Below are positions 33,985 to 56,958 of a stretch of 64,000 bases of DNA, piece after piece. The notes below the pieces were generated by a model, which worked only from the letters and a program-made list of their open reading frames with translations, had not been told where the DNA came from and made no database searches. Both the position numbers and the translations under genes were made by a program. The stretch covers positions 2,624,001 through 2,688,000 of the forward strand of contig OZ242011.1 of the NCBI GenBank assembly GCA_965204755.1, given 5' to 3'. The DNA is from Candidatus Marinacidobacterium sp. Its GTDB lineage: Bacteria > Acidobacteriota > Vicinamibacteria > Marinacidobacterales > Marinacidobacteraceae. Positions within the stretch are counted from its first letter, which is position 1, and every line of letters starts with the position of its first letter.

Positions 33985-35304
33985 ATGTTCGCAAGTTCCC
34001 TCTCCCGCCGCCGGTTCCTCGGCGCCTCGGCCGCCGCGCTCGGCGGCGCCGCCCTCCCCGCCTCGCTCGCCGCCGGGCAGCAGCGGCCGGTCCCGCCGCT
34101 CCCGCTCGCCGACCTCACGCCCCCGGCGGATCCCGGCGAGGACTACTGGTGGAAGGTCCGCTCCCAGTTCAATGTGGTGGACGGGATGGCCTTCATGAAC
34201 AACGGCACCCTGGGGCCGAGCCCCCGGATCGTCGCCGACGAGGAGGCCCGGATCTACGCCGAGATCGCCGCCGACCCGACGAACGGCTACCGCCGCGCCG
34301 AACTCCACGAGCACCGGGAGACCCTGGCCGCCTTCATCGGCGCCGAGCCCGACGAAGTGACCTACACCCGGAGCACCACCGAAGGGATGAACATCTTCGG
34401 CCGGGGCCTCGACTGGAAGAGCGGCGACGAGATCCTGATGTGCACCCACGAGCACAACGGCGGGATCGAGCCCTACATCCACGCCGAGGAGCGCTACGGG
34501 GCGGCCATCCGCTGGGTGGACATCCCCTCGCCGCCGGAGAGCGTGGACCAGATCGTCTCGATCTACGAGCAGGCGGTCACCCCCCGCACCCGGGCGATCA
34601 TGGTCAGCCACATGACCTATGTGACCGGCCTGCTGATGCCGGTGAAGGAACTCGCCGACCTCTGCCGCCGGAAGAACCTGCTCCTCACCGTGGACGGCGC
34701 CCACCCGCTGGGGATGATCGCCCTCGACATGAAGGCCCTCGACTGCCACCACTACGCCGGGGCGGGCCAGAAGTGGCTCCTGGCCGGCACCGGCACCGGG
34801 CTCTCCTACATCCGCCGGGACACCATCGGCGAGGTCTGGCCGCTCATCGGCGCGGGCACCTACAAGGTGGACGGCGAGCGGCAGTTCTACGAGGACTCCC
34901 GCAAGTTCGAGAACACCGGCCAGCGCCATACCCCCTCCGCCTTCGCCCTGGTCAAGTCGGTGGAGTTCCAGAAGGTGATCGGCAAGGCCCGCATCGAGGC
35001 CCGCGTCCGGTCGCTCTCCCGCCGGTTGCGGGACGGCCTGGCGGAGATCCCCGGCGTGAAGACCTGGACGGCGAACCGCGACGACCTGGCCGCCGGCCTG
35101 ACCCTGTTCTCGATCCACGACCTGCCGATGGACAACATCCAGCAGGCGCTCCTGGAGCGCGACCGGGTCTTCATCCGGACGATGGGCACCGGGAACCTGA
35201 ACGCGGTGCGCGCCTCCACGCACTTCTACAACATGCCCCACGAAGTGGACCGGCTGCTCGCCGGGGTCCGGAAGATCGCCGGGAACCCGACCTCGGTCGC
35301 GTAG
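33985..35304 (+). CDS. Tat-exported class V PLP aminotransferase (isopenicillin-N epimerase/cysteine lyase-like)
   Basis: SRRRFLG Tat motif, NNGTLG, STTEG, VDGAH and GQKWL PLP lysine. Confidence 0.88.
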   Translation: MFASSLSRRRFLGASAAALGGAALPASLAAGQQRPVPPLPLADLTPPADPGEDYWWKVRSQFNVVDGMAFMNNGTLGPSPRIVADEEARIYAEIAADPTNGYRRAELHEHRETLAAFIGAEPDEVTYTRSTTEGMNIFGRGLDWKSGDEILMCTHEHNGGIEPYIHAEERYGAAIRWVDIPSPPESVDQIVSIYEQAVTPRTRAIMVSHMTYVTGLLMPVKELADLCRRKNLLLTVDGAHPLGMIALDMKALDCHHYAGAGQKWLLAGTGTGLSYIRRDTIGEVWPLIGAGTYKVDGERQFYEDSRKFENTGQRHTPSAFALVKSVEFQKVIGKARIEARVRSLSRRLRDGLAEIPGVKTWTANRDDLAAGLTLFSIHDLPMDNIQQALLERDRVFIRTMGTGNLNAVRASTHFYNMPHEVDRLLAGVRKIAGNPTSVA

Positions 35305-35355: not shown

Positions 35356-36057
35356 CTACCGGAGGAGGGCTTCCCGGAAGCCGGGGTCGCTCAGCCCCGG
35401 CGCGTCGGCGGCGACTTCCGGCAACTCCCCGTTCCACGCGCCGGCCGCGGACTCCAGCCGGCGCCGCCGCTCGTCGGTGAGCGCGCCCTGCGGCGACGGC
35501 GTTCGTTGGTCGAACCAAGTGAGCGCCGCGACGACCCGCGGCAGGAGTTCCGGTTCCGGGTAGAACGCCTGCATCGCGGCGAGGGCGCGCGGCAGGGACT
35601 CCCCGGCGGCGAGCAGGGCCGCGAGGTCCGCCGCGTCGTTCTCCTCGTGCCGTTGGTAGGCCATCGCCGCCTTGAACCCGGCGAGGTCGAGACGCGAAGC
35701 CACCCGCGGCCCGTCCGCCGCGGCGAGCGGCGCCCCGAGGCGCGGATGCGGGAGACCCCCGAAGAACGAGAGGAGCACCGGGCCGGCGCCGGTGTCGAGC
35801 CGCAGGCCGAGCGTGTTCTTCTTGTCCTGCGTCACCGGCGCCCGTTCGAGATCCAACCGGCGGCGCAGCGCCCGCTTCCCGGCGTCGTCCAGCGGCAGCG
35901 ACGAGAAGAAGTCGAAGTCCACGGAGTCCCGGTGCGCCGCGTGGAGGGCCACCGCGGTACCGCCGTAGAGGACGAAGTCCTCGCGGGTCGGGGTCAGTCG
36001 GCGCCAAGCCTCTCGCTGCGGCGCGGGCAGGCGGCTCAGGTGGAGCGCGGGAGGCAC
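35356..36057 (-). CDS. AbiEii/AbiGii-family nucleotidyltransferase toxin
   Basis: FVLYGGTAVALHAAHRDSVDFDFF signature; GTG start at 36057. Confidence 0.85.
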   Translation of the reverse strand: MPPALHLSRLPAPQREAWRRLTPTREDFVLYGGTAVALHAAHRDSVDFDFFSSLPLDDAGKRALRRRLDLERAPVTQDKKNTLGLRLDTGAGPVLLSFFGGLPHPRLGAPLAAADGPRVASRLDLAGFKAAMAYQRHEENDAADLAALLAAGESLPRALAAMQAFYPEPELLPRVVAALTWFDQRTPSPQGALTDERRRRLESAAGAWNGELPEVAADAPGLSDPGFREALLR

Positions 36058-36542
36058 TCCGCGTAGCCGCGCTTCCGGTCGGGGTAGAGCGGAGGCCAGA
36101 CCGTCGGCGCCGGATCCTCGGTGTCCGGCGGCAGCGCGCCCGCGGCCTTCATCTCCGTGACCATGGTCGGCGCCGGTCGGCGGGGCCGCTCCCCGTGGAG
36201 CCGGAGGTGCCAGTACTTCCACTCGATCGGGCTCATGGCGCCCGGCCGGGCGTGGTGGAGGGCGATGCGGAAGGCGCGTTGGCCGAAGAGGTCGAGCCCG
36301 AGGAGCGCGTGTCGGCTCGGCCCCTGCCGCATCAGCCCGCAGAGCAGCGTGACCCCGTCCCGCGCCAGCCCCACCCGGTCCGCCGGCCCGCACCGCCAGG
36401 TGCTCTCCTGCTCCAGCCGCCGCAACTCCGCCAGCCGCTCCGGCGGGCAGCCCGCGACCAGGTCCATCCACGGGCGCTCCCCCGGCGGCGCGTGGCGGGC
36501 CGAGGGTTCCGCGTAGCGGTCCGCCGCCCCCTCGTCAGGCAT
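36036..36542 (-). CDS. Hypothetical protein, probable antitoxin partner of AbiEii
   Basis: Overlaps the AbiEii start; PGAMSPIEWKYWHLRL resembles the W..WH motif of small AbiEii-upstream proteins. Confidence 0.6.
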   Translation of the reverse strand: MPDEGAADRYAEPSARHAPPGERPWMDLVAGCPPERLAELRRLEQESTWRCGPADRVGLARDGVTLLCGLMRQGPSRHALLGLDLFGQRAFRIALHHARPGAMSPIEWKYWHLRLHGERPRRPAPTMVTEMKAAGALPPDTEDPAPTVWPPLYPDRKRGYAECLPRST

Positions 36543-39504: not shown

Positions 39505-39816
39505 GGCCGGGCGCGGCGGCGGGGGCGGTCTTCGATCCCTTCGGCCGGGCGAGCCGCGGCGCCGGGAAGGCGGCGCGCGGAAGGGGTGAAGTTTCTTGTC
39601 CGGGCGCGCCGTTACCTTTCGCCCAGTCACCCCGTACGGATGCCGCTGCGTCGAGGCGGCGCCGCCGGTGACGGAGGAAGACCGCCCATGACCGCCCGCC
39701 GAGCCGGCGCTCCGACGCCGATGGCGAACGCGCCGGTGGCGTCCGGCGGCCCGGTGCCGGGCTTGGCCGGGAGAGGCCGGCGCCGGGCCCCCGATGTTCT
39801 ATCCTTGCCCCATCCG

Positions 39817-41082
39817 ATGGCAGTCCCCGGAGACGCGCCCTCCGGCGGCCGGCGCGTGTACTTGGACTACGCCGCAACGACGCCGGCCGACCCGGGCGTG
39901 ATCGCCGCCATGACGGAGTGCCTCGGGCGGGAGGGCGTGTTCGGGAACCCCGCGTCCCGGACGCACGCCTTCGGGCGGGAGGCGTCCGAGCGGGTGGAGA
40001 CGGCGCGGGAGTCGGTGGCCTCCCTGATCGGGGCCGAACCCTCCGAGGTCGTCTGGACTTCCGGCGCGACGGAATCCACGAACTTGGCCGTCAAGGGCGT
40101 GGCGTTGGCCGCGACCGCGTCCGGAGCCGGCGAGCGGCGACGCCACATCGTCACCTCCGCCGCCGAGCACAAGGCGACCCTGGACTGCTGCGGCTGGCTG
40201 GAGGGCCGCGGCTTCGAGGTCACCCGCCTGCGCCCGGACTCCGCCGGCGCCATCACCGCGCGGGCCGTGGAAGCGGCCCTGCGCCGGGACACCGTCCTCG
40301 TTTCGCTGATGGCGGTCAACAACGAAGTCGGGACGATCACCGACCTCGGCGCGATCGGCGCGGTCACTCGCGCTCGGGGCATCGTCTTCCACGCTGACCT
40401 GGCGCAGGCCGCGGCGCGGCTTCCCGTGTCCGTTGATTCGCTCCGGCTGGACTTGGCTTCGCTCAGCGGGCACAAGATGTACGGCCCGAAGGGCGTGGGG
40501 GCGCTCTATGTCCGCCGCTCCGTGCGGGACCGCATCGAACCCCAAGTCCACGGCGGGGGACAGGAGTTGGGCCTGCGCGCCGGCACCCTCCCGACGCACC
40601 AGATCGTCGGGATGGGCGCGGCGGCGGAGTTGGTCCGGCGCCGGCTGGACGAAGACCGGGAGCGGGTGGCCGCCCTGGAGCGGCGCCTGCTCGACTCCCT
40701 CGGCGGCGTGGACGGCTTCTTCCGCAACAGCGACGGGGCGGACCGGGTCCCGGGGATCGTCAGCGTCGGCTTCGAAGGCGTAGCGAGCGAGTCTCTCCTT
40801 GTGGCGCTTCCGGACCTGGCGCTCTCCACCGGGTCCGCCTGCACCTCCCGCCGAGTGGAACCGTCGCATGTGCTCGCCTCCCTGGGTGTCCCGGAAGACC
40901 GGGCGCGTTGTTCGGTTCGGGTGAGCCTCGGGCGGTACGCCACGGAAGCCGATGTGGAATACGCGGCCCGGCGACTGGCCGCGTGCGTCACCGGTCTGCG
41001 CGCCCTCGCCTCGGTGGCGCCCGCGGCGCCGCGCTATCTCGCCGAAGATCCGGCTGACCTGCCTGTCGGAGTGTCCGCCTGA
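39817..41082 (+). CDS. dndA: Cysteine desulfurase (IscS/DndA)
   Basis: YLDYAATTP, GNPAS, TSGATES, SGHKMYGPKG and catalytic STGSAC. Stop overlaps the dndC start (TGATG). Confidence 0.88.
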   Translation: MAVPGDAPSGGRRVYLDYAATTPADPGVIAAMTECLGREGVFGNPASRTHAFGREASERVETARESVASLIGAEPSEVVWTSGATESTNLAVKGVALAATASGAGERRRHIVTSAAEHKATLDCCGWLEGRGFEVTRLRPDSAGAITARAVEAALRRDTVLVSLMAVNNEVGTITDLGAIGAVTRARGIVFHADLAQAAARLPVSVDSLRLDLASLSGHKMYGPKGVGALYVRRSVRDRIEPQVHGGGQELGLRAGTLPTHQIVGMGAAAELVRRRLDEDRERVAALERRLLDSLGGVDGFFRNSDGADRVPGIVSVGFEGVASESLLVALPDLALSTGSACTSRRVEPSHVLASLGVPEDRARCSVRVSLGRYATEADVEYAARRLAACVTGLRALASVAPAAPRYLAEDPADLPVGVSA

Positions 41083-42260
41083 TGCCCTTCCCGCTCCCCG
41101 TCCTCGACACGGCGCCACCGGATGTATCCGGAGTGGCTGACCGCTTGGGCGAGACGATGCAGGCGATCCGGCAGGCATATCTCCGGCGGGACCGGCATCC
41201 GTGGGTCGTGGCGTACTCCGGCGGCAAGGACTCGACGCTCCTCCTGCAACTCGTGTGGGAGGTCGTCGAGTCGCTGCCGGAGTCCGACCGCCGCCGGCAG
41301 ATCGTGCTCGTCGGCAACGACACCCTCGTCGAGTCGCCGCTCGTCATCGGTCACCTGCGGGGAAGTCTGGAAACCATCCGGCGGGTGGCCCGGAAGCGGA
41401 GCCTTCCGATCAATGTGCGCATCACGAAGCCCCACATCGACCAGACCTTCTGGGTCAATGTCATCGGCCGCGGTTACATTCCTCCTACCCGCAACTTCCG
41501 CTGGTGCACCGACCGGATGAAGATCCGCCCGACGAGTCAACTTCTCGAACAGTTGGTGCGGGCGAACAAGAAGGCGGTCCTGCTCGTCGGAACGCGCAAG
41601 GCGGAATCGGAAACGCGCCGGCGCAACATGAAGAGGCACGGCGCGAGCGCCCGGCGCATGAACCGCCACAGCAGCGTGGAGGGCTGCTGGATGTTCGCTC
41701 CGCTGGCCGACCTCAGCGACGAAGAGGTCTGGATGATCCTGATGCAACGCAACCCCCCTTGGGGCGGCACGCATCAGGACTTGATCACTCTCTATCGAAA
41801 CGCTGGCGGCGGAGAGTGCCCGCTCGTCCTCACCAAGGCCGATGCGCCCTCGTGCGGGACGACTTCGCCCCGTTTCGGCTGCTGGACATGCACCGTCGTG
41901 ACCAAAGACCGCAGCCTCCGGGGCCTCATAGACTCCGGCCACCGGGACGCCTCCGCCATGGAGCGGCTCTTCGAATTCCGCGAGTGGCTTGTCGAACTTC
42001 GGGAAGACGACCGAAACCGGGACCGGACGCGCCGCGACGGAAGCGTGAAGCGCCGCAGCGACGGCTCCTATGTCATGGGCCCCTTCACGCTCGAGGTTCG
42101 CGAAAAAATCCTGGAACGGCTGCAGCAACTCGAGAAGGCGGTCGGGGTCGACCTGATCCAGCGCGGCGAGATGGATCTCATCCACGACATCTGGCGCCGT
42201 GATCGAGTCCAAGAAGAATGCCGCTCGGCGTTCCGTGAAGCCTTTGCGATTTCCGCGTGA
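41082..42260 (+). CDS. dndC: DndC-family phosphorothioation sulfurtransferase (PAPS reductase/PP-loop)
   Basis: PWVVAYSGGKDS, NDTLVESP, TFWVNVIGRGY, FRWCTDRMKI, GTRKAES, NPPWG, GECP, RFGCWTCTVV and GPFT. Confidence 0.92.
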   Translation: MPFPLPVLDTAPPDVSGVADRLGETMQAIRQAYLRRDRHPWVVAYSGGKDSTLLLQLVWEVVESLPESDRRRQIVLVGNDTLVESPLVIGHLRGSLETIRRVARKRSLPINVRITKPHIDQTFWVNVIGRGYIPPTRNFRWCTDRMKIRPTSQLLEQLVRANKKAVLLVGTRKAESETRRRNMKRHGASARRMNRHSSVEGCWMFAPLADLSDEEVWMILMQRNPPWGGTHQDLITLYRNAGGGECPLVLTKADAPSCGTTSPRFGCWTCTVVTKDRSLRGLIDSGHRDASAMERLFEFREWLVELREDDRNRDRTRRDGSVKRRSDGSYVMGPFTLEVREKILERLQQLEKAVGVDLIQRGEMDLIHDIWRRDRVQEECRSAFREAFAISA

Positions 42261-42264
42261 TCCT

Positions 42265-44070
42265 GTGAATCTGATCCCTCGGACTTCCATTCGAGCGGAG
42301 GCCATGTCGTTCTCGGACCTTTTCGAGATGGGGACATTCTCCGTTCCGTGGCACCAGCGGCACTATGATTGGGACAAGCCCCATGTGACGGCCCTCCTCA
42401 ATGACATCGAGGAGGCACGCCGGGAAAGCCGGGTCTGCTATTTCCTCGGTTCGATCATGTTGATCGACTCGGGTGGCGACCACTGGGAAATCAACGACGG
42501 GCAGCAGCGAATGGTCACGGTTTCCCTGATCATCGCCCGGCTCTGTCGACTGGCGTTCGACGAGAACCCCGACGCGCAAAGAGTGAAGATCGCCTTGAGC
42601 AAGTTGTTCGTCGTCGAACGCGACGCAGTGTGTAGTCTCGACGACGCCGACGGCTACCAAGCACGCATCACGCCTCCTCGGAACGATCTCACTCGATATC
42701 ACCAGATCATCCGCGGCAACCCCATCGGCACGAATGGGAAACTCACCACTGCATGGAAGGAGATCGATGCGTTTTTGACCAGTATGTCGCTCTCCGACGC
42801 CTATCGGTACTTCGACTATTTGGTCAAGAAGACAGAAGTGGCAGTGCTTCGCGTTCCGAAAGTCGTGGACCCGAACGCGGTCTATGAAACACTCAACTTC
42901 CGAGGTAAGAACCTGGACGATGTGGATCTGATCCGGAATCACCTCTACTCGTTCTTCTCCGATGACGCAGACGAACATCGGCGTGAGGTGGTGCGCGAAA
43001 ACATCGAGAGGATCGGCGATGCCCTCACCCGAAGAGGAAAGTCTAGGAACAGGAGTGCCGAAGAGTATCTGAGGTGTCATACGCAGTGCCTGTTCGGTCA
43101 CATGCGTAGCCAGCACTTCTATCGCGACTTCCGAAGAGAGATGCGGGCGTATCTGAACAACCAGCGGACGTCCAGACGCACAGACGCCGCCTTGGTGTTC
43201 CAACTTATCGAGAAGTTGTCCGATCGCGCGGCTCTGCGCCTATTCCGAACGATCACCACACCAGGGCCGGACCCCGAGGCCGTAGAGGGCTTCGAGCGTC
43301 GCGCGGGGACAACGGGAAGCCGCCGGCGGCTGGCAGTGTTTCTGAGGGAACTGCGTAACTACACCGTAGTACAACCGCTGCTGTTCTCCATGCTCATGGT
43401 GTACCGAAGGGAGAGTGACGGTCGCCGGCTGCGTCGCATTGCGAATGAGGTCAACCGGAGTGTCGAGCGGCTTACGGCTTTCGTGCTTCGGACGGCTTTT
43501 GTCGTTCCGAAGTTCGAACCTTCCCATTATGAGGAGAAGTTTGCGGATCTCGCGCGACAGATGATGGATGCGGGTGAGACGTCGGAAGAGGCAATCATCG
43601 ATCTGCTCCGTGAGTGCGATGTGCACGGAGTCTTGGATGACCAGCAGTTTCGGGAATCCATGAAACGCGTGAAGAGAATGACCGGATCCGCAAGGATCAG
43701 GTCGTTCCTCCTTGGTGTCAATGCGACCGTGGCAGGTGACCCGAGCCTGTTGAACGAAGAGCGGTGCACGCTGGAACATATCCTCCCAACGGGTGCTGAG
43801 CATTGGAGCGGCTGGACGGGCTTCAAGACAGTGGACGAGAGCGAGTATGCTCATCGCTTGGGGAATCTGACGCTGATGGGCCCCGATGACAACAAACCGG
43901 GTAAGCGGTTCAATGCGAGTTTCAATGCCAAGAGAGGCAGTTACGAGCAGAGTTCGGTAGCGATGACGAGAGAAGTTGCCAAGCAGGACGAGTGGAACCC
44001 GGATGTGATCGCGCGTCGGGAGGATGACCTGATTGAGCGGGCGATCGAAGTATGGACCTTCGAGGCCTGA
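42265..44070 (+). CDS. DUF262 + DUF1524 (HNH) protein, SspE/GmrSD-like
   Basis: VPWHQRHYDW, FLGSI, INDGQQR and YETLNFRG; C-terminal TLEHILP and RLGNLTL. Alternative start ATG 42304. Confidence 0.9.
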   Translation: MNLIPRTSIRAEAMSFSDLFEMGTFSVPWHQRHYDWDKPHVTALLNDIEEARRESRVCYFLGSIMLIDSGGDHWEINDGQQRMVTVSLIIARLCRLAFDENPDAQRVKIALSKLFVVERDAVCSLDDADGYQARITPPRNDLTRYHQIIRGNPIGTNGKLTTAWKEIDAFLTSMSLSDAYRYFDYLVKKTEVAVLRVPKVVDPNAVYETLNFRGKNLDDVDLIRNHLYSFFSDDADEHRREVVRENIERIGDALTRRGKSRNRSAEEYLRCHTQCLFGHMRSQHFYRDFRREMRAYLNNQRTSRRTDAALVFQLIEKLSDRAALRLFRTITTPGPDPEAVEGFERRAGTTGSRRRLAVFLRELRNYTVVQPLLFSMLMVYRRESDGRRLRRIANEVNRSVERLTAFVLRTAFVVPKFEPSHYEEKFADLARQMMDAGETSEEAIIDLLRECDVHGVLDDQQFRESMKRVKRMTGSARIRSFLLGVNATVAGDPSLLNEERCTLEHILPTGAEHWSGWTGFKTVDESEYAHRLGNLTLMGPDDNKPGKRFNASFNAKRGSYEQSSVAMTREVAKQDEWNPDVIARREDDLIERAIEVWTFEA

Positions 44071-45467
44071 CGGACGCCGCGAGTGTGCGGCGTCGCGTGG
44101 AATCGGACCTGAAACTGCCGGCGCCACTTCTGCCGTATCAGTGGGAGGGAGTGGCGTTTCTTTGTCGATCACCGGCCGCGCTCTTGGCGGACGAGATGGG
44201 GCTGGGGAAGACGGTGCAGGCCGCCGTAGCGCTGGCGCTGTTGTTGAACGGCGGATCGAGCGTACGGCGCGTCCTGGTCGTGGCTCCGGCATCCCTGACT
44301 CTGAACTGGATGGAAGAGATCCGTCGCTGGGCACCATCGGTGACCGTGCGGCGTCTGACCGGGAGCGACCGGGATCGGGCGGCCTGGTACATCCTTCCGG
44401 TACCGGTTCTCGTGGGATCGTACGAGCAGATTCGGGAGGACGGTCTGGACCGCATACCGCGGGGCGCTTTCGACCTGGTGATTCTGGACGAGGCGCAGCG
44501 CATCAAGAACGAGGCGTCGCGGACTTCACTCGCTTGCCGACTCTTGCCCCGGGAGCGGGCTTGGGCACTGTCGGCGACACCTCTCGAGAATCGGGAGGAA
44601 GACTTGGTGTCGATCTTCGGGTTCCTTAATGTACGGGCCGATGGAGGGCGGCCGGAGGATCTGGGAAGAGCCCTTGAAACCGTGATGCTGCGCCGTCGAA
44701 AATCGGAGGTTCGGGCGGATCTGCCGCCCGTCATCATCCAGGATGTCCGGGTGGAGATGGATCGGCCTCAACGAGAGCGGTACGACCGGATGTGGGTCCA
44801 TCGGACCGAGGGGCTGGAAGCGGGGCGGAATCGGAGTGAGATCCGGGGGATGCTGCTCGGGCTGATCACGCGTTTGAAGGCGGTGTGCAACTTCGACGAG
44901 CGCACGGGCTGCTCGGCCAAGTTGGAGGGGCTGGAGGCGGTCATCGATGGGGCCGGCCCGACGGCGCGCATCTTGGTCTTCTCCCAGTTCGTCTCGACTC
45001 TGCGGTGGATTTCTGATAAACTCAGAGTTCCACATGGTCTCGTCATCGGGCCGATGACGATGGAGGCTCGGCAGGAGGCCATGAGCGATTTTCGGCTGAA
45101 GCCGTCCCCCAGAGTCCTGCTCGTGTCCCTGAAGGCGGGCGGTGTCGGCCTCAACCTTGGAGAAGCCACTCACGTAGTGATGTTCGATCGGTGGTGGAAC
45201 TCTGCCGTGGAGTCGCAGGCCATTTTTCGCGCCCACCGGCACGACCGCCCGGATCCGCTCCATGTGATCCGGTTTCTCACCGTCGAATCCATCGAGGAGC
45301 GAATCGCAGCGATCATCGAGCGGAAGACATCACTGTTCGATGAGGTGGTCGAAGGCGCGAGCAGCCGACGACCGAAACACGACGGGCTCACGGAAGCAGA
45401 CCTGAGATACATGCTCGACTTGGCTTCCGCCGGGCCAGACCACGAGTCGCACTCAGTCACGGCGTAG
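44052..45467 (+). CDS. Minimal SNF2-family helicase/translocase
   Basis: LLPYQ.EGV, LADEMGLGKT, LDEAQRIKN, SATPLEN, FSQF, SLKAGGVGLNL and DRWWN. Confidence 0.93.
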   Translation: MDLRGLTDAASVRRRVESDLKLPAPLLPYQWEGVAFLCRSPAALLADEMGLGKTVQAAVALALLLNGGSSVRRVLVVAPASLTLNWMEEIRRWAPSVTVRRLTGSDRDRAAWYILPVPVLVGSYEQIREDGLDRIPRGAFDLVILDEAQRIKNEASRTSLACRLLPRERAWALSATPLENREEDLVSIFGFLNVRADGGRPEDLGRALETVMLRRRKSEVRADLPPVIIQDVRVEMDRPQRERYDRMWVHRTEGLEAGRNRSEIRGMLLGLITRLKAVCNFDERTGCSAKLEGLEAVIDGAGPTARILVFSQFVSTLRWISDKLRVPHGLVIGPMTMEARQEAMSDFRLKPSPRVLLVSLKAGGVGLNLGEATHVVMFDRWWNSAVESQAIFRAHRHDRPDPLHVIRFLTVESIEERIAAIIERKTSLFDEVVEGASSRRPKHDGLTEADLRYMLDLASAGPDHESHSVTA

Positions 45468-45484
45468 AGCGCTGGGAGGCGCGT

Positions 45485-46312
45485 ATGGCAAGCATCAAAG
45501 AGTATCGGTCGCTCCCGCTGGGCGACCTGGTCATCGGCAAGGCTCAAGTTCGGGTAAGCGAACTCGGTGCCGGCATCGACGAACTGGCGGAGAGCATCCG
45601 CGTACAGGGCCTGTTGCAGCCGATCGTCGTCTGCCAAGCCGAGGACGGAGAGCGGTGGGAAATCCTCACCGGTCAGCGCCGTTTCCTGGCTCACCAGCGG
45701 TTGGAGCGCGACTCCATCTACGCCGCGATCTTGGACGAGCGCGTCGGCGAGGCCGAGGCCAAAGCGATCTCGATCACGGAGAATCTGGTTCGCCGGAAAC
45801 TGACTGGACGGGATTTGAAGGACGGAATCCTGTTCTTGTACAACCGCTACGGGAGTGTTCGGGATGTGGCCGACAAGACGGGGATCTCCCAGAGCCAAGT
45901 GCGGGCCAATGTGAAGTATCCGCGGCTTCACCGCCGTCTTCAGCAACTGGTCGACGACAACGCTGTGCCGATCAATGTGGCGGTCAGGGCAAATGACGCC
46001 GCAATGGACGCGAGCGGTGAAGTCAACCCGGACGAGGCCGAGAAACTCGCCCGGGAGATGGACCCGATGGCCGATGTCCAGCGCCGCAAGTTGGTTCAGG
46101 ATCGCCGAGCACATCCGGAGAAGTCGGTCGACGATGTCATCGAACATGCCAAGACCGGTGGACAGATCTTCCAAGTCACTACCACCGTCTCGGCGCAGAC
46201 GCACGCCGCGATCCAGAGAGTGGCGAAGGAAGAGGGACTCAACCAGGACGAGGCGACCTCGATGTTGATCGAGGAAGCACTCGCAGGTCGAGGCGCCTTC
46301 GAGGAGGAATGA
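45485..46312 (+). CDS. ParB/Srx-domain protein with HTH and possible C-terminal ribbon-helix-helix
   Basis: ELAESIRVQGLLQPIVV, TGQRR, ENLVR and VRDVADKTGISQSQV; GGAGG SD. Confidence 0.88.
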   Translation: MASIKEYRSLPLGDLVIGKAQVRVSELGAGIDELAESIRVQGLLQPIVVCQAEDGERWEILTGQRRFLAHQRLERDSIYAAILDERVGEAEAKAISITENLVRRKLTGRDLKDGILFLYNRYGSVRDVADKTGISQSQVRANVKYPRLHRRLQQLVDDNAVPINVAVRANDAAMDASGEVNPDEAEKLAREMDPMADVQRRKLVQDRRAHPEKSVDDVIEHAKTGGQIFQVTTTVSAQTHAAIQRVAKEEGLNQDEATSMLIEEALAGRGAFEEE

Positions 46313-47031
46313 TGACCGCGCCCCGATCCTGGGATCTCGGGCGTCTTCGGATGTCTGTGGGGTACGGCAGGCAGAAGCGCGGACGGCACTACTCTCCGGT
46401 CGAAGTGGGCGAGTGGGTGATGCAGGAACGGAGACGCGGGGCGTCGCTCGCCGATTGCGCGGCGACTCTCAACCTCGATGGCGTCGGCCATATCGGGCGG
46501 TTTCCTCGTCTTCTGAGACTGCCTGAAGATGTCCTCCACCTCGTGGATTGGGGTACGCCGCGAGGCGGCATCGGTTTCTCGGCGGCGGTGGAACTGGCGA
46601 AACTGCGAAGCCAGGGTGACCAGCGGGAAGTCGCGGATGCCGTACTGAAACATGGCCTCACGAGTCGAGAGATTCGGCAGATGGGCCAACTGAGGCAGCG
46701 GTCTGACCGCACCGTGACGGAGGCGATCGAGGACGGACTCCGGATGCGTCCGAAGGTCGTGCGCCGTCATGTCTTCCTCGGAAGTGTCTCGGCGCGCATT
46801 CGCGACTACATGGCCGATCGAGAACAATGTCAGCGTGACGCCCTGCTGCGGCACAGCATCGACAAAGTTGGACTGCGAGAAGTCACCGGCAGGTTGGGCC
46901 CGCAGATCTTCACACTGGTCGGCGGCGACGTCTTCGCGAAGTCGATGCGCGACATCGGTGTCGACGACATTGAGTCGAAGTTGCTCGATGCGATGGAAGA
47001 GGAGGTTTCTCGTGGGCGAGCCGAAGGTTGA
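46309..47031 (+). CDS. Hypothetical protein resembling the ParB HTH/central region
   Basis: SPVEVG, GASLADCAATL, LLRLPEDV, IGFSAAVEL and GLTSREIR; ATGA-coupled to ParB. Confidence 0.65.
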   Translation: MMTAPRSWDLGRLRMSVGYGRQKRGRHYSPVEVGEWVMQERRRGASLADCAATLNLDGVGHIGRFPRLLRLPEDVLHLVDWGTPRGGIGFSAAVELAKLRSQGDQREVADAVLKHGLTSREIRQMGQLRQRSDRTVTEAIEDGLRMRPKVVRRHVFLGSVSARIRDYMADREQCQRDALLRHSIDKVGLREVTGRLGPQIFTLVGGDVFAKSMRDIGVDDIESKLLDAMEEEVSRGRAEG

Positions 47032-48040
47032 TGTGTTCGCCAACGGCGCTGTTGCTCTTGGCGATCACATAGTGTGCGACGGGTATGTGATGGGGCGGGC
47101 CTATCGTGTCCAGACACATATACATGACGACCACATGGCGGGCTTCAACACGAGCAAGGGGGAACAGGATTTCCTGTTGAGTCCCGCGACTTACGATCTC
47201 TTGGTCGCCGAGAAGGATGCCGAGTTGCCGTATCGGAGCAACTTTCACGCGTTGGACGCGGGCGGCAGCAAGTCGTTGTTCGATGGCTCCTCGGTGGAAC
47301 TGGCGCCGTCGAACCACATGCTCGGTGCGTGTCAAGTGGCTGTGACCTTGCCCGGCGGCGGCCGGCTGGGGTACTCCGGCGACTTCGGATGGCCGATCGA
47401 GCAGGTCATCGAAGTGGACGAGTTGGTGGTGGACAGTACTTACGGTAGTCCGCGGAGCGTGAGGTCTTACGGCCAAGAGGAAGTGGAGGCGCGACTCTGG
47501 GAGATCATCTGCGCTGCGCTGCGGGTGGGGACCGTCCATATCCGCGCGCACCGGGGAACGATCGAGCGAGTGCTGCATCTGCTGGGTCAGGGGACGGGGG
47601 TTCCCATTTTGGCGTCGGATCGCCGGATTCGAGAGGTCGAGGTCTACCAGAAGTACGGCTACGCGGTTTGTGACTTGGTTTCGATCGAGTCGGAGGCCGG
47701 AAGGGAGGCGCTGAAGGAGAGGTCGTATGTGCGCGTGTACTCGAAGGGTGACGGGTTTCCGAATGAACTTCTGGAGGGCACTTCAGTAATCTGCAGTGCC
47801 TTCATGTGCGGGCCTGACGATCCGGTGCTACAGCACTCGGAACGGGTCTTTCGCGTGGCCCTCTCGAACCATGCGGATTTCGAGGAAACGCTGGCGTACG
47901 TCCGGGAGACGGGAGCGAAGCGGGTGGTTACGGACAACACGCGCCTTCACGGATGCGAGTTGGCGCTGGCGCTGAACGAGCGGCTCAGTGGCGTGGAAGC
48001 GTCACCGTCGTCCAATCGGCCCACCCCGCGACGGGAGTAG
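47012..48040 (+). CDS. Metallo-beta-lactamase / beta-CASP nuclease (SNM1/Artemis-like)
   Basis: THIHDDH, SNHMLG, YSGDF, VVDSTYG and SNHADF; GGAGG SD before GTG 47012. Confidence 0.88.
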   Translation: MGEPKVDVFANGAVALGDHIVCDGYVMGRAYRVQTHIHDDHMAGFNTSKGEQDFLLSPATYDLLVAEKDAELPYRSNFHALDAGGSKSLFDGSSVELAPSNHMLGACQVAVTLPGGGRLGYSGDFGWPIEQVIEVDELVVDSTYGSPRSVRSYGQEEVEARLWEIICAALRVGTVHIRAHRGTIERVLHLLGQGTGVPILASDRRIREVEVYQKYGYAVCDLVSIESEAGREALKERSYVRVYSKGDGFPNELLEGTSVICSAFMCGPDDPVLQHSERVFRVALSNHADFEETLAYVRETGAKRVVTDNTRLHGCELALALNERLSGVEASPSSNRPTPRRE

Positions 48041-48096
48041 CGCGGCCGAGTAGGTGTGGCCGCGCGCGGACCCGGGCGGCCGCCGGCGGGGGCCGG

Positions 48097-48924
48097 TTAC
48101 TCGGCTTCGACCGGGTTGCGGAGCGTTCCTACGCGTTCGATTTCGACTTCCACGAGGTCGCCGGGTTTCAGGTAGAGGGGCGGTTTCCGGGCGGCGCCGA
48201 CGCCGGAGGGGGTGCCGGTGGCGATGACATCGCCGGGCCGGAGCGGGGTGATGCGGGAGAGGTAGGCGATGAGTTCCCGCACCGGGTAACTCATCCGGGA
48301 GGTATGGCTCCGCTGGACGACTTCGCCGTTCAGCCGGGTTTCGATGGAGAGCGCCTGCGGGTCGGGGATCTCGTCGGCGCTCGCGATCCAGGGGCCGAAA
48401 CCGCCGGTGCGGTAGAAGTTCTTCCCGGGGCCGAACTGGGTGCTGTGGGCCTGGTAGTCGCGCACCGAGGCGTCGTCGAAGCAGGAATACCCGGCCACAT
48501 GGTCGAGCGCCCGGTCTTCCGGGATGTGGCGGCCGGGTTTGCCGATGACGACCGCGAACTCGCCTTCGTAGTCCAGTTTCTCCGAGACGCGGGGTCGCAG
48601 CAACGCCTCCCCGTGTCCGACGAGGCAGACCGGGAACCGGGTGAACAGGGTGGGGTAGTCGGCCTTGGCCTTGCCGGTTTCGATCCGGTGGTCCTCGTAG
48701 TTCAGCCCGACGCACCAGATGGCTCCAGGGCGGGGGATCGGCGGGGCGAACCGCGCCCCGTCCAGCGGCGCCCCGGCGGCCCAGTCCGGTTCCGACTCCG
48801 GGAGCCCCCCGTCGAGCCGCGCCCGGAGCGGGCCGTCACCGGGCAGCCGGACGAACCGCTCCCCGTCGGACGAGATGGCGACCGGCGTCTCCGCGCCGGC
48901 GAGGAGGAGTGTTGCGAATCTCAT
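48097..48924 (-). CDS. Fumarylacetoacetate hydrolase family protein
   Basis: CVGLNY.DH, LDYEGE, DASVRDYQ, GKNF and PGDVIATGTPSGVG. Confidence 0.93.
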   Translation of the reverse strand: MRFATLLLAGAETPVAISSDGERFVRLPGDGPLRARLDGGLPESEPDWAAGAPLDGARFAPPIPRPGAIWCVGLNYEDHRIETGKAKADYPTLFTRFPVCLVGHGEALLRPRVSEKLDYEGEFAVVIGKPGRHIPEDRALDHVAGYSCFDDASVRDYQAHSTQFGPGKNFYRTGGFGPWIASADEIPDPQALSIETRLNGEVVQRSHTSRMSYPVRELIAYLSRITPLRPGDVIATGTPSGVGAARKPPLYLKPGDLVEVEIERVGTLRNPVEAE

Positions 48925-48951
48925 GGAGCGCGGATGCTATCTTCCTCCGTC

Positions 48952-50271
48952 ATGAGTACCGAACCCACGGCGCGCAAGGAGCACGTCGTCATCCGCAGCG
49001 AAAATCGAATCCGGTTTCTCGGGCGGGTGAACACTCGAGCCCATCGCGAATTTCTGTACTGTTTGTCGAACGGCGTCGAGCGCGGTTACAAGGACTTCGT
49101 CCTCGATTTCGCCGCCAGTGAACGGGCGTACCTGTGGGGGATGCTTCCCCTGCTTGCCGATGTGGAGCGGCTGCGGCGCGAGCATGTATCCGTCGAAGTC
49201 GTCTTGCCGACGGAGCCGAATTGCCGGCGCCTCTTTCTGAAGACGAATTGGGCGCACTATCTCGACCCCGCCCACTACGAAAAGGTGCATGCGGACCTCG
49301 TTTACACCGGGTACGGTCGCCATGTTCCGGCCCACCGCTTCACCGACGGAACGACTCAAAAAGCCTTGGTGGACGCCTCCTTGGATGTCCTCATGAAGAA
49401 TCTCCGGCTGGATCGCGTCTCCCTTCATGCATTGGAGTGGTCGCTGAACGAGATTACGGACAATGTCTTGAACCACGCGGAATCTCCGGACGGCGGGCTC
49501 GTCCAAGTGAATACCTTCTCCGAGGGGCTACGGGTTGAGATCGGTGTCGCAGACTCCGGTCAGGGTGTTCTTGCTTCCCTGCGACAAGGACATTCGCATC
49601 TCCGTACGCACGAAGAGGCGCTCTACGAGGCCATGAAGCCCGGCACGACCCGCGATCCGCGGGTTGGGCAGGGCAACGGGATCTGGGGCACGATGAGCAT
49701 TGCCAAGGCGTCCGGCGGTAGTTTCGAGATCACTTCGGGCTCGGCCGAACTCAAGGTGTCACAAGACGAGGTGAGACCGTACAAACGCTCTCGGCGATTG
49801 AGTTTCTGCGGCACCTTCGTTCGGGCCGATTTCCGGCTCGACTCCGGGGCTGCGTTCGAAGAAGTCTTGGGAGTGCCGGGAAGCCGCGCCGATCTCATCG
49901 AAACTTCGTATGAAACCGACGACGGTGACGCCGTGGTCCTGCGGCTCAATCGGGAGTCGTCCGGATTCGGCACCCGGTGGGCCGGGCGGGAGTTGCGGAC
50001 GAAGTGCCGGAACCTCCTCGACGCCGCGCCGGAGAAACCGCTGTTGCTGGACTGGGAGGGAATCGCCCTCGTGTCCAGCAGTTTCGCGGATGAACTCATG
50101 GGCAAACTGTTCGTGGAACTCACGCCGCTGGCGTTCGCGGCGAGGGTCCGCAGCAAGGGGATGGAGCCGCTCGTCCGCGGGCTCGTGGACAAGGCGATCC
50201 TGCAGCGGGCGGCGCAGGCCGCGGCGGAGAACGACGCGGCTTCCGGCGGGACGGAATCCGGCGCGCCCTGA
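48952..50271 (+). CDS. STAS-like - HATPase - DUF4325(STAS-like) protein
   Basis: EITDNVLNHA, ADSGQG and GQGNGI GHKL boxes; C-terminal LLDWEGIALVSSSFADELMGKL. Confidence 0.8.
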   Translation: MSTEPTARKEHVVIRSENRIRFLGRVNTRAHREFLYCLSNGVERGYKDFVLDFAASERAYLWGMLPLLADVERLRREHVSVEVVLPTEPNCRRLFLKTNWAHYLDPAHYEKVHADLVYTGYGRHVPAHRFTDGTTQKALVDASLDVLMKNLRLDRVSLHALEWSLNEITDNVLNHAESPDGGLVQVNTFSEGLRVEIGVADSGQGVLASLRQGHSHLRTHEEALYEAMKPGTTRDPRVGQGNGIWGTMSIAKASGGSFEITSGSAELKVSQDEVRPYKRSRRLSFCGTFVRADFRLDSGAAFEEVLGVPGSRADLIETSYETDDGDAVVLRLNRESSGFGTRWAGRELRTKCRNLLDAAPEKPLLLDWEGIALVSSSFADELMGKLFVELTPLAFAARVRSKGMEPLVRGLVDKAILQRAAQAAAENDAASGGTESGAP

Positions 50272-55806: not shown

Positions 55807-56958
55807 ATGGCAAGGGGTTCGGGTAACGGGCCGTTCCGCCCCGGCGCAGGCGTTCCGCCGCCGGTCCTGGCCGGACGGGAGACCGAACAGGCGATGTTTC
55901 GCCGTACGGTGCAAGGCCTTTCGGCCCGGGTCCCGCCGCCGGCCGACGCCGTTCTGTACGGGCCGCGCGGCAACGGGAAGACCTCGCTTCTCGCCTGGTT
56001 GGCCGCCGAGGCGAAAGCGGTGCGCGGCGTGGACGCGCTCCTCTTGGATCCGTCGGAGATACCGGATACCGCGGCGCTGGCGGCGCGGCTCGCGCGGCGT
56101 CCGTTCCGGCGGCCGTTCGCGCCGGCCGAGACCACCGTTCGCGGAGTCACTTCGCAACGCTCCCCCGGTGAGGGGACGCGGTTGCTCCGTGAGACCCTGG
56201 AGCGGCGCGTTCGTCGGCGAGGTTCGATCCTGCTGTTCGACGAGGCGCACACCCTGCCGCCGGAAGTCGGGCGGCCCCTGCTGACCGTGAGCCAGCAGGT
56301 GCGGTCCCGCGGACTTCGATTCCTGTTGGTCTTGGCGGGCACTCCGGATCTTCGCGACCGGCTCGCGGAAACCGACGCCACCTTCTGGAATCGGAGCGAA
56401 ATCCACCCCATCGGGCGCCTGGGCGCCGAAGCCAGCGCGCAAGCGATTCGCGAGCCGCTTGCCGACGACGGGATCACGATTCCGGACGATGCGCTCGATC
56501 GCGTTCTGGCCGAATGCCACGGGTACCCCTTCTTCCTCCAACTCTGGGGTGACGCCTTGTGGAAGCGAGCCGACGCGGCGCGCCGCGACGGGGCCGCACC
56601 CGCGGTGACTGTCGAGGCCGTGGATCTCGCGGCTTCGGAGTCCGAGCGGCGGAAGCGCTTGTACTACCTCGACCGGTACCGCGAGATGGAGAAGGCTGAA
56701 CTGCTCGAGGTGGCCGCCTCGGTCGCGGAGGCCTTCGCAGAATCTCCGAAGGTCTCCTCGGCGCAACTTCGCGCGGCCATCGCCGCCGGGATCGGGGACG
56801 GCTCCGATCCCGCGCGCATCGACAGCGCCGAGACGACGCTGCGGCAGACGGGTTTCGTCTGGCGAGGGGGCGGCGACACCCGGTGGGAACCCGGAATCCC
56901 GAGTCTCATGGATTACATGCGGGAAGAAACCGCCAAGAACATCGTGGCGGCGCGGTAG
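55807..56958 (+). CDS. AAA_16-type ATPase
   Basis: PFRPGAG..PPVLAGRE, GPRGNGKT, LLFDEAH and GYPFFLQLWG. Confidence 0.88.
   Translation: MARGSGNGPFRPGAGVPPPVLAGRETEQAMFRRTVQGLSARVPPPADAVLYGPRGNGKTSLLAWLAAEAKAVRGVDALLLDPSEIPDTAALAARLARRPFRRPFAPAETTVRGVTSQRSPGEGTRLLRETLERRVRRRGSILLFDEAHTLPPEVGRPLLTVSQQVRSRGLRFLLVLAGTPDLRDRLAETDATFWNRSEIHPIGRLGAEASAQAIREPLADDGITIPDDALDRVLAECHGYPFFLQLWGDALWKRADAARRDGAAPAVTVEAVDLAASESERRKRLYYLDRYREMEKAELLEVAASVAEAFAESPKVSSAQLRAAIAAGIGDGSDPARIDSAETTLRQTGFVWRGGGDTRWEPGIPSLMDYMREETAKNIVAAR

Follow-up and report, generated by a model that had tools for sequence, protein, structure and literature searches.

A 64,000-nt stretch of the genome of Candidatus Marinacidobacterium sp. 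(GTDB lineage: Acidobacteriota; Vicinamibacteria; Marinacidobacterales; Marinacidobacteraceae), comprising positions 2,624,001 to 2,688,000 of the forward strand of contig OZ242011.1 (assembly GCA_965204755.1) and referred to below as the window, carries at 39817-48040 a locus of seven plus-strand genes (g1-g7), which we analyse here as a candidate system of DNA phosphorothioate (PT) modification and defence. The first three genes, termed the core, encode a cysteine desulfurase, a short relative of the sulfurtransferase DndC and a GmrSD-family protein; the last four, termed module B, encode an SNF2-family ATPase, two proteins related to ParB and a putative nuclease of the metallo-beta-lactamase (MBL) fold. 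Their coordinates and lengths in amino acids (aa), with the models or methods behind each assignment, are as follows.

39817..41082, + strand: g1, IscS/DndA/SspA-like class-V cysteine desulfurase, 421 aa (PF00266, PADLOC)
41082..42260, + strand: g2, short DndC, PP-loop/PAPS-reductase-type sulfurtransferase, 392 aa (TIGR03183)
42265..44070, + strand: g3, GmrSD-family DndI-like protein with a DUF262 NTPase domain (DGQQR) and a DUF1524 HNH domain, 601 aa (GmrSD_N, GmrSD_C, 9JFL)
44052..45467, + strand: g4, minimal SNF2-family ATPase core, 471 aa (SNF2-rel_dom, Helicase_C)
45485..46312, + strand: g5, ParB/Noc-like protein with an N-terminal NTP-binding domain, a helix-turn-helix (HTH) and a conserved C-terminal segment, 275 aa (ParB_N, TIGR00180)
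46309..47031, + strand: g6, ParB-type DNA-binding domain only, with a C-terminal alpha/beta domain, 240 aa (AlphaFold2, VIA-align)
47012..48040, + strand: g7, MBL-fold, beta-CASP-type putative nuclease, 342 aa from a GTG start (weak TIGR04122, profile)

Consecutive genes overlap or abut throughout, as an earlier note on this DNA had claimed, and a check of the open reading frames (ORFs) of the window reproduced every junction that it gave. The stop codon of g1 and the start codon of g2 share one base in TGATG (41080-41084), a 4-nt gap precedes the GTG start of g3 at 42265 (a longer ORF is open from 42199), and g3 and g4 overlap by 19 nt (g4 start at 44052, g3 end at 44070). Further downstream, a gap of 17 nt (45468-45484) separates g4 from g5, g5 and g6 meet in ATGA at 46309-46312, and g6 and g7 overlap by 20 nt (GTG of g7 at 47012, end of g6 at 47031).

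The identification of the first two genes as IscS-like and DndC, made in the same note, held up. The g1 product matches PF00266 with 257 bits, and PADLOC, which was used throughout for its protein models and hence for single-protein matches, ranks SspA first (471 bits) and DndA close behind (463 bits). On these scores g1 qualifies as the DndA/IscS component that Dnd modification requires; it falls below the NCBIfam cut-offs of both the IscS and the DndA models, and its ORF is open upstream as far as a GTG at 39586. The g2 product scores 364 bits against the DndC model TIGR03183 (cut-off 290), covering model positions 3-365 of 447, and 387 bits against the PADLOC DndC model, as opposed to 31 bits against SspD. 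In an alignment of 18 family members, the SGGKDS motif and C142, C246, C258, C267 and C270 are invariant, so that g2 qualifies as the DndC component by score, cysteines and PP-loop, with the C-terminal part missing. We refer to this large family of roughly 390-400-aa proteins as short DndC: its 120 best matches, one per 90%-identity cluster, are all 372-432 aa long. The median pairwise identity within the family is 62%. In DndC of E. coli B7A, Cys146, Cys273, Cys280 and Cys283 are described as holding the cluster and residues 140-142 as forming a 'specificity loop', and residues 433-482 together with the last helix make up a predicted interface with DndD that is supported by pull-downs (PMC12193691). 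The g2 protein stops before the region equivalent to this interface. Counting back from the first cysteine, the invariant T136-R137-N138 of short DndC would sit at the position of the specificity loop. As a side observation, the PADLOC model PDLC03333, labelled 'Type II methyltransferase', matches the DndC domain of g2 with 221 bits over model positions 29-406 of 544 and seems to include a DndC-like part.

The third gene, described in the earlier note as an SspE/GmrSD-like nuclease, has both GmrSD domains (GmrSD_N, 87 bits; GmrSD_C, 72 bits). PADLOC gives 223 bits for HEC-06 against 49 bits for SspE, and among solved structures the best relative is DndI (9JFL, E 1.7e-17), which aligns over both domains. 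DndI of Salmonella is a DUF262-DUF1524 nickase that senses PT and pairs with IscS-DndBCDE (PMC11662687), which also corrects the notion that effectors of this type pair only with SspABCD. The DUF262-DUF1524 architecture, DGQQR motif and HNH domain required of the DndI of IscS-DndBCDE-DndI defence are all present in g3. Of 75 aligned family sequences, 70 retain DGQQR and 73-74 retain the EH/GN residues.

Structure prediction suggests that g2 and g3 form a complex. The predicted pair reached an ipSAE of 0.62 (0.62, 0.65 and 0.56 in individual runs), with the best control at 0.00, at least 68% of contacts common to the runs and a partner pLDDT of at least 81. Among solved pairs, 116 of 157 attain the mark applied to such predictions, compared with 2 of 215 mismatched pairs; these counts hold only approximately here, as the prediction ran on our own alignments. 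A memorised complex is unlikely, because the PDB holds no solved structure related to DndC by sequence at E<=0.01. The predicted contacts place DndC residues 376-391 against the region between the two domains of g3, and short DndC may bind the GmrSD-like protein through its conserved C-terminal tail.

The earlier note had seen neither DndD nor DndE in the window and had allowed that dndDE might lie elsewhere and act with this dndC. The absence extends to the whole host genome, a single 3.98 Mb contig, which contains only one DndC, no DndD above cut-off (best TIGR03185 match 20.7 bits, cut-off 246) and no match to the DndE model TIGR03184, with the proviso that small genes such as DndE can escape detection and that marker genes put the completeness of the genome at 89%. 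Scanning one genome per species, nearly all of them metagenome-assembled, yielded 80 loci with short DndC, and the same searches recovered both DndD and DndE in one of these (L006, discussed below), which served as a positive control. DndD above cut-off and DndE (PF08870) are absent from all nine single-record chromosomes with short-DndC loci that were tested, four of which carry the seven-gene form and five an alternative form with a DndB-like gene. Across the 49 genomes with short-DndC loci in which DndD and SspB were counted genome-wide, DndD exceeded the cut-off in only 4, SspB/DUF4007 was found in 14, and 33 have neither DndD nor SspB.

Gene presence in the 80 loci, counted by tblastn with the window proteins as queries, shows a tight core and a more loosely attached module B. 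An IscS-like gene lies directly upstream of short DndC in 64 loci. A GmrSD gene is present in 76 and adjacent to short DndC in 75, so that the direct DndC-GmrSD succession pointed out in the earlier note is a general feature, and the three core genes are colinear in 61. SNF2 and ParB are each found in 47 loci, the HTH protein (g6) in 48, the MBL protein (g7) in 46 and all four together in 45. The six genes from DndC to MBL are colinear in 41 loci and all seven occur in the order of the window in 35; the earlier note had suggested looking for this gene order in unrelated genomes, and its recurrence in 35 of 80 related loci is far beyond chance. In 4 of the 45 loci with a complete module B (L057, L065, L066 and L082), the module is inverted or displaced. 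Pairwise identities correlate at 0.60-0.65 within the core (0.64 for DndC and GmrSD), at 0.60-0.77 within module B and at 0.18-0.47 between the two sets; the locus pairs are not independent, and these values are given without a significance test.

In a phylogenetic tree, the short DndCs group together as a single clade (SH-aLRT 100) that excludes the full-length DndCs from the loci with module B described below. The 60 rows of the tree that bear a phylum label represent at least nine phyla, and these labels need at least 15 changes along the tree, with a minimum of 8, which fits repeated horizontal transfer. The carrier taxa include Candidatus Poriferihabitaceae and Porisulfidus, which we take to be sponge symbionts. 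In two runs labelled 'sponge metagenome', both belonging to a single study, contigs cover the locus of the window at ~94-98% identity (33 of 1706, 54 of 924 and 60 of 2044 letters differ), and a marine-metagenome run (X13) gave short pieces only. Contigs of ~17 kb in both sponge runs pass directly from position 42415 to 45997. The 3581 bases skipped hold the whole of g4 together with most of g3 and the first third of g5, and g1, g2, g6 and g7 are retained; the interval 42.5-45.9 kb has little or no read cover in four metagenome runs, and the deletion is read from the contig joint alone. Such an apparent loss of the effector with the modifier kept is the direction that the logic of restriction-modification tolerates.

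The short DndC might, of course, be something other than a DNA phosphorothioation enzyme, namely a remnant or an enzyme acting on an RNA, nucleotide or protein persulfide substrate, flanked by an ordinary GmrSD type IV enzyme and by unrelated defence genes that happen to share the island. This view draws on the missing C-terminal fifth of canonical DndC, on the habit of GmrSD enzymes of attacking modified DNA, on the current view, stated in a survey of Dnd systems that anchored its neighbourhoods on DndD/DndE, that modification would be non-functional without them (PMC10853773), and on Horn et al., who noted an enrichment of PT genes in sponge metagenomes 'even though not functionally complete' (PMC5099237). 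It has to contend with the conservation of the family across phyla, at the median identity given above and with invariant Fe-S and PP-loop residues, which argues against decay, as well as with a DndC score above a curated cut-off, a dedicated desulfurase linked in 64 of the 80 loci, and a GmrSD partner that is adjacent in 75, co-varies with DndC and is predicted to bind it. Taken together, we regard such an explanation as quite improbable, and infer that the core makes PT.

In module B, the g4 protein matches SNF2-rel_dom with 146 bits and Helicase_C with 63 bits; the PADLOC models of ZorD, DpdE (172 bits) and DrmD match it in their helicase parts only, and the NCBIfam DpdE model gives 64 bits against a cut-off of 500. 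The g5 protein matches ParB_N (54 bits) and TIGR00180 (69 bits, cut-off 58), and across residues 6-165 its family profile finds Noc (7ol9, 1e-20) and structures of chromosomal ParB, with E-values of 1e-20 to 1e-12 for the Noc and ParB matches. By sequence, it bears the hallmarks of a ParB/Noc clamp, namely an N-terminal NTP-binding fold with GxRR and ENLxR followed by an HTH; all 23 family sequences compared carry the two arginines of GQRRF and the ENLxR residues of TENLxRR. We take these two motifs to be ParB boxes II and III, the nucleotide-binding boxes of CTP-dependent ParB clamps. For g6, profile search gave a weak HTH_ParB match, and its AlphaFold2 model (pLDDT 89.5) aligns over residues 3-131 with Spo0J (1vz0_A; VIA-align Z 11.2, root-mean-square deviation 2.4 A over 106 residues), followed by ParB 6s6h and KorB 1r71; its top Atlas cluster is 'ParB HTH domain-containing protein' (0.97). 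The C-terminal domain of g6 (residues ~150-240) reaches a Z of at most 6.3, against unrelated folds. A sulfur-binding domain in g6 was considered and discarded, as Foldseek found no match at E<=0.001 (best 3.6e-3) and residues 3-131 are accounted for by the ParB DNA-binding domain.

The last gene of the module, g7, matches Lactamase_B_2 weakly and TIGR04122 with 49.6 bits (E 2.4e-13), far below the cut-off of 325, and its family profile finds archaeal CPSF/FttA beta-CASP structures at a weak ~1e-4; the HxHxDH motif is invariant in its relatives. The family comprises 161 cluster representatives at E<=1e-30 among 1.84 billion. Two relatives, P0244 (582 aa) and P0246 (459 aa), carry an additional N-terminal part of ~240 and ~125 residues, respectively, and may be fusions with a neighbouring gene. 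PADLOC protein models gave no meaningful match for g5-g7. A phage or plasmid origin of module B was rejected, as tblastn with g7 against 72,556 plasmid and 50,697 phage records found no match. When viral contigs were scanned with the alignment of short DndC, a single relative came up, at 23% identity.

Module B is not confined to short-DndC loci. A search with g7 of 400 other genomes of the same phylum gave matches in two, G041 and G138, the latter containing only a 29% identical MBL relative with no module around it. The MBL protein of G041 is identical, over 87% of the query, to a shorter Geothrix oryzae protein in NCBI, and its gene lies in a ParB-HTH-MBL-SNF2 module which, together with a GmrSD gene, is convergent with a canonical cluster of dndB (497 bits), full-length dndC (625 bits, 552 aa), dndD (555 bits) and a 111-aa dndE, the last a candidate by position and size. 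A scan of metagenomes with an alignment of the G041-type MBL protein uncovered 32 contigs, 16 of which carry dndB, dndC, dndD or dndE beside the module. The other 16 are mostly too short for a verdict on dnd genes; the exception among the longer ones is L096, which has 8.3 kb free of dnd genes on one side and ends just past SNF2 on the other. Three arrangements were seen: ParB-HTH-MBL-SNF2 facing dndEDCB convergently, SNF2-ParB-HTH-MBL co-directional with and upstream of dndBCD, and ParB-HTH-MBL immediately before dndBCDE. Among 38 ORFs flanking the dnd loci with module B, PADLOC found no match to DndFGH, Pbe or SspE. Three of the 38, in three loci (L093:9341-10264, L111:4899-5801 and L113:5010-5483), encode small HNH proteins (PADLOC HNH models, 72-91 bits) that lie beside the canonical dnd genes and the module, one of them with a weak match to a type IV restriction enzyme. 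In two further loci, L104 and L105 (L105:10001-11598), a 157-aa N-terminal MBL fragment abuts a 5'-truncated DndC gene (375 aa) that is followed by dndD and dndE, an arrangement suggestive of a deletion by which module and dnd cluster became fused.

These neighbourhoods bear on the mechanism put forward in the earlier note, in which SNF2, ParB and the beta-CASP nuclease, and by extension the HTH protein, replace DndD and DndE in modification by engaging DNA, using ATP and nicking, all seven genes acting as one machine. The absence of DndD and DndE from the host genome, the translational coupling of the genes and their colinearity in 35 of the 80 loci are what such a machine would lead one to expect, and there is a precedent in the Dpd system, where the ParB-superfamily ATPase DpdB assists DNA modification (PMC12839542). 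Nevertheless, in G041 and in 16 of the 32 contigs the module adjoins a complete dndBCDE cluster whose DndC is full-length, so that no substitute is needed there. Conversely, short DndC normally occurs without DndD/E both with and without module B: 22 loci have the DndB-like gene and lack the full module, and all five tested chromosomes of this form are devoid of DndD/E. Add to this that the module can be inverted or displaced, that it co-varies less with the core than internally, and that the sponge deletion removes SNF2 and part of ParB with DndC kept, and the replacement of DndD/E becomes distinctly unlikely. Judging from its neighbourhoods, module B is a phosphorothioate-associated partner rather than a DndD/E substitute. 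Of the broader proposal of the earlier note, a hybrid and undescribed sulfur-modification defence system, there remains a conserved locus of sulfur-modification type for which neither the literature nor the PADLOC models gave a counterpart; the stand-in mechanism is not supported.

In part of the short-DndC loci, the GmrSD gene is followed by a different set of genes. Clustering of the ORFs of the 80 loci identified a small GIY-YIG protein (20 loci) and then a DndB-like DGQHR protein (28 of 80; PF14072, 99 bits), and the DndB-like gene and a full module B occur together in only 6 loci. This distribution invites the view that module B services or regulates PT-modified DNA, either by tuning modification as DndB does or by using its ParB clamp, together with a remodeller and an exonuclease of repair type, to process nicks or oxidative breaks at PT sites. 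A negative regulatory effect on PT has been described for DndB (PMC10853773), the nearest named family of g7 is the ligase-associated DNA-damage-response exonucleases (the weak TIGR04122 match above), and the locus in the window already owns a nuclease effector in g3. On the other hand, module B co-occurs with DndB in canonical loci and hence is not a simple replacement for it, the 38 flanking ORFs without a DndFGH, Pbe or SspE match leave the restriction role vacant, and a translocase, a nuclease and a DNA binder are also the make-up of DndFGH and SspFGH as these are described (PMC8092258, PMC11662687). We therefore consider a servicing or regulatory role rather unlikely.

Collectively, we give about an even chance to the interpretation that the locus is a two-layer, PT-based defence island built of two semi-independent modules, the core and a separate module B. 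In the first layer, the IscS-like g1 would mobilise sulfur from cysteine and short DndC would insert it into the DNA backbone through its PP-loop ATP pyrophosphatase domain and a 4Fe-4S cluster. Short DndC would do so without DndD or DndE, its C-terminal tail docking instead on the co-translated DndI-like GmrSD protein; our proposal is that its independence from DndD/E follows from the loss of the DndD-docking C-terminal region. The DUF262 NTPase domain of g3 would read PT and spare self DNA, and its HNH domain would nick unmodified invading DNA, as in DndI and SspE. In the second layer, module B would act as a portable PT-associated effector, combining an SNF2 translocase, a ParB/Noc-like NTP-dependent clamp, a partner with a ParB DNA-binding domain and a beta-CASP nuclease that is held back on PT-marked DNA, in a role analogous to those of DndFGH, SspFGH or TdpAB. 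Module B is probably a second, translocating restriction module, and we infer that it restricts rather than helps or regulates modification.

The three partner forms found with these loci each pair a ParB-superfamily NTPase with a nuclease: the DUF262-HNH protein g3, the DndB-like protein with GIY-YIG, and ParB with beta-CASP and SNF2. By analogy with SspE and DndI, PT may in each form be read by the ParB-fold protein. A still broader reading, which we hold only tentatively and would not expect to be correct in full, is that the three-gene core is a self-contained PT restriction-modification unit in which g3 has physically replaced DndD/E as the partner through which DndC engages DNA, writer and reader/eraser acting in a single complex, that the quartet g4-g7 is a new class of PT-guided restriction that also serves dndBCDE, and that the core spread horizontally among symbionts of at least nine phyla with its invariant Thr-Arg-Asn kept, so that a host-associated community may share one PT mark.

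Several observations weigh against the two-layer interpretation. As DndB is a known regulator and most loci have either module B or the DndB-like/GIY-YIG pair but not both, module B could equally regulate or assist modification. The residue of DndI that senses PT, Tyr25, is His in 66 of the 70 members of the g3 family that fill this column and Tyr in 4, so that PT sensing by g3 is putative; of the P23/Y25/Q26 patch of DndI, the Pro and Gln are kept, and a conserved Trp stands just before the Tyr/His column. Independence from DndD is not universal, DndD above cut-off being encoded elsewhere in 4 of the 49 genomes. Moreover, in L006 (L006:13285-16824) the same short DndC is followed by GmrSD, a true DndD (292 bits) and a fusion of DndE with an FtsK/HerA-type ATPase. 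Many of the genomes are metagenome bins, in which the absence of a gene is weak evidence, and the calibration of the complex prediction is, as noted, approximate. Separately, we note that L006 is the sole case of DndD with a DndE fusion among the loci looked at.

A further complication is posed by the host itself, which encodes a complete SspABCD locus ~180 kb upstream of the window (L121; G000:C1:2430001-2450000, minus strand), and this locus could supply PT or partner proteins to the seven genes. It comprises an HNH gene, SspB, SspC (792 bits), SspD (360 bits) and SspA; next come a DGQHR gene of DndB type and a gene for a small SNF2 protein. SspB/DUF4007 is read in two frames, the result of a frameshift or else of a wrongly placed SspC start. 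The core of the small SNF2 protein is 33% identical to g4, and the DndB-like gene is the only one in the host genome, the seven-gene locus having none. Both PT-type loci of the host thus have a small SNF2 protein and a ParB-superfamily protein.

Among named systems, the closest relative is IscS-DndBCDE-DndI of S. enterica Cerro 87, which shares with the locus the desulfurase, DndC and a ~600-aa DUF262-DUF1524 protein with DGQQR and HNH (PMC11662687). Unlike that system, the locus has no DndB, DndD or DndE, and its DndC, at 392 aa, has no DndD-docking C-terminus; furthermore, g3 directly follows DndC, is predicted to bind it and is itself followed by the four genes of module B. Canonical DndABCDE systems with DndFGH or PbeABCD share the sulfur-insertion pair DndA/IscS and DndC and the same logic of a modification module linked to a multi-gene translocase and nuclease partner, and differ in having the DndD and DndE that are missing from the host genome. 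PbeA is described as a large DEAD-family helicase, PbeB as a protein of 66 aa, PbeC as SMC-like and PbeD as a protein of 152 aa; on domain make-up, by this description, g4-g7 are not PbeABCD (PMC6459918). The DndF, DndG and DndH models have no PADLOC match for g5-g7; for g4 the best 25 of 40 matches were considered, with no genome-wide search for DndFGH made.

SspABCD with SspE or SspFGH also combines a desulfurase and a PAPS-reductase-type enzyme with a DUF262-DUF1524 effector, but the seven-gene locus contains neither SspB nor SspC, and the SspB, SspC and SspD of the host lie 180 kb off in a locus of their own. SspF is described as having a Walker A motif and SspH as resembling an FtsK-like translocase, to neither of which module B bears a likeness, and the identification of g4-g7 as SspFGH was rejected accordingly (PMC8092258); the published descriptions set the module apart from DndFGH and SspFGH alike (PMC11662687, PMC8092258). 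A precedent for a DndC-like enzyme acting alone is TdpABC of thermophiles, a compact PT system without DndD/E in which the single modification gene tdpC is said to suffice for making PT, as a one-sentence description in the introduction of PMC12914056 has it (the system is also cited in PMC13223576). In the Dpd 7-deazaguanine system, a DNA-modifying enzyme is accompanied by DpdB, an ATPase of the ParB superfamily, and by the SNF2 helicase DpdE; unlike Dpd, the seven genes include no DpdA/TGT or DpdC, the modifier here being DndC with a desulfurase.

Our literature search found no paper on a combination of DndC with SNF2, ParB and beta-CASP proteins, nor on a DndC family without DndD/E; neighbourhoods of this kind could be listed in the supplementary tables that accompany the Dnd survey (PMC10853773) and the Pbe paper, which lay outside the search. 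Surveys of dnd genes were anchored on dndCD or on DndD/E (PMC6459918, PMC10853773), and therefore a DndC working without DndD/E would be missed by them. If short DndC makes PT, what the reaction minimally requires has to be redefined, PT modification gains a compact tool of three genes, and the 'incomplete' PT systems enriched in sponge metagenomes (PMC5099237) find an explanation. Module B, for its part, would add a new class of partner to DndFGH, PbeABCD, SspE/DndI, SspFGH and TdpAB and would place a ParB/Noc-type clamp in a defence role.

Finally, the surroundings of the seven genes hold several further features. The next gene, at 47953-50271 on the plus strand, overlaps the end of g7 by 88 nt and encodes a 772-aa protein with HATPase_c and a STAS-like DUF4325, with a partial match to PADLOC DrmA (114 bits); it was left out of the proposed system, having a counterpart in none of the 80 related loci. 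The flanks encode an AbiEii-like nucleotidyltransferase toxin (35356-36471, minus strand), a second class-V aminotransferase (33985-35304, plus strand) and a STAND/AAA NTPase (55807-56958, plus strand), and no tRNA gene was found in the 64-kb window. The G+C content of the window is ~72%, with a lower stretch (58-66%) at ~42-50 kb. Within the locus, g1 is host-like in composition (73% GC, 89% at third codon positions, GC3) and g2-g7 range from 57 to 65% GC; g3 has the lowest value of the set, 57.5%, and is also its most divergent member, with a median pairwise identity of 43%.

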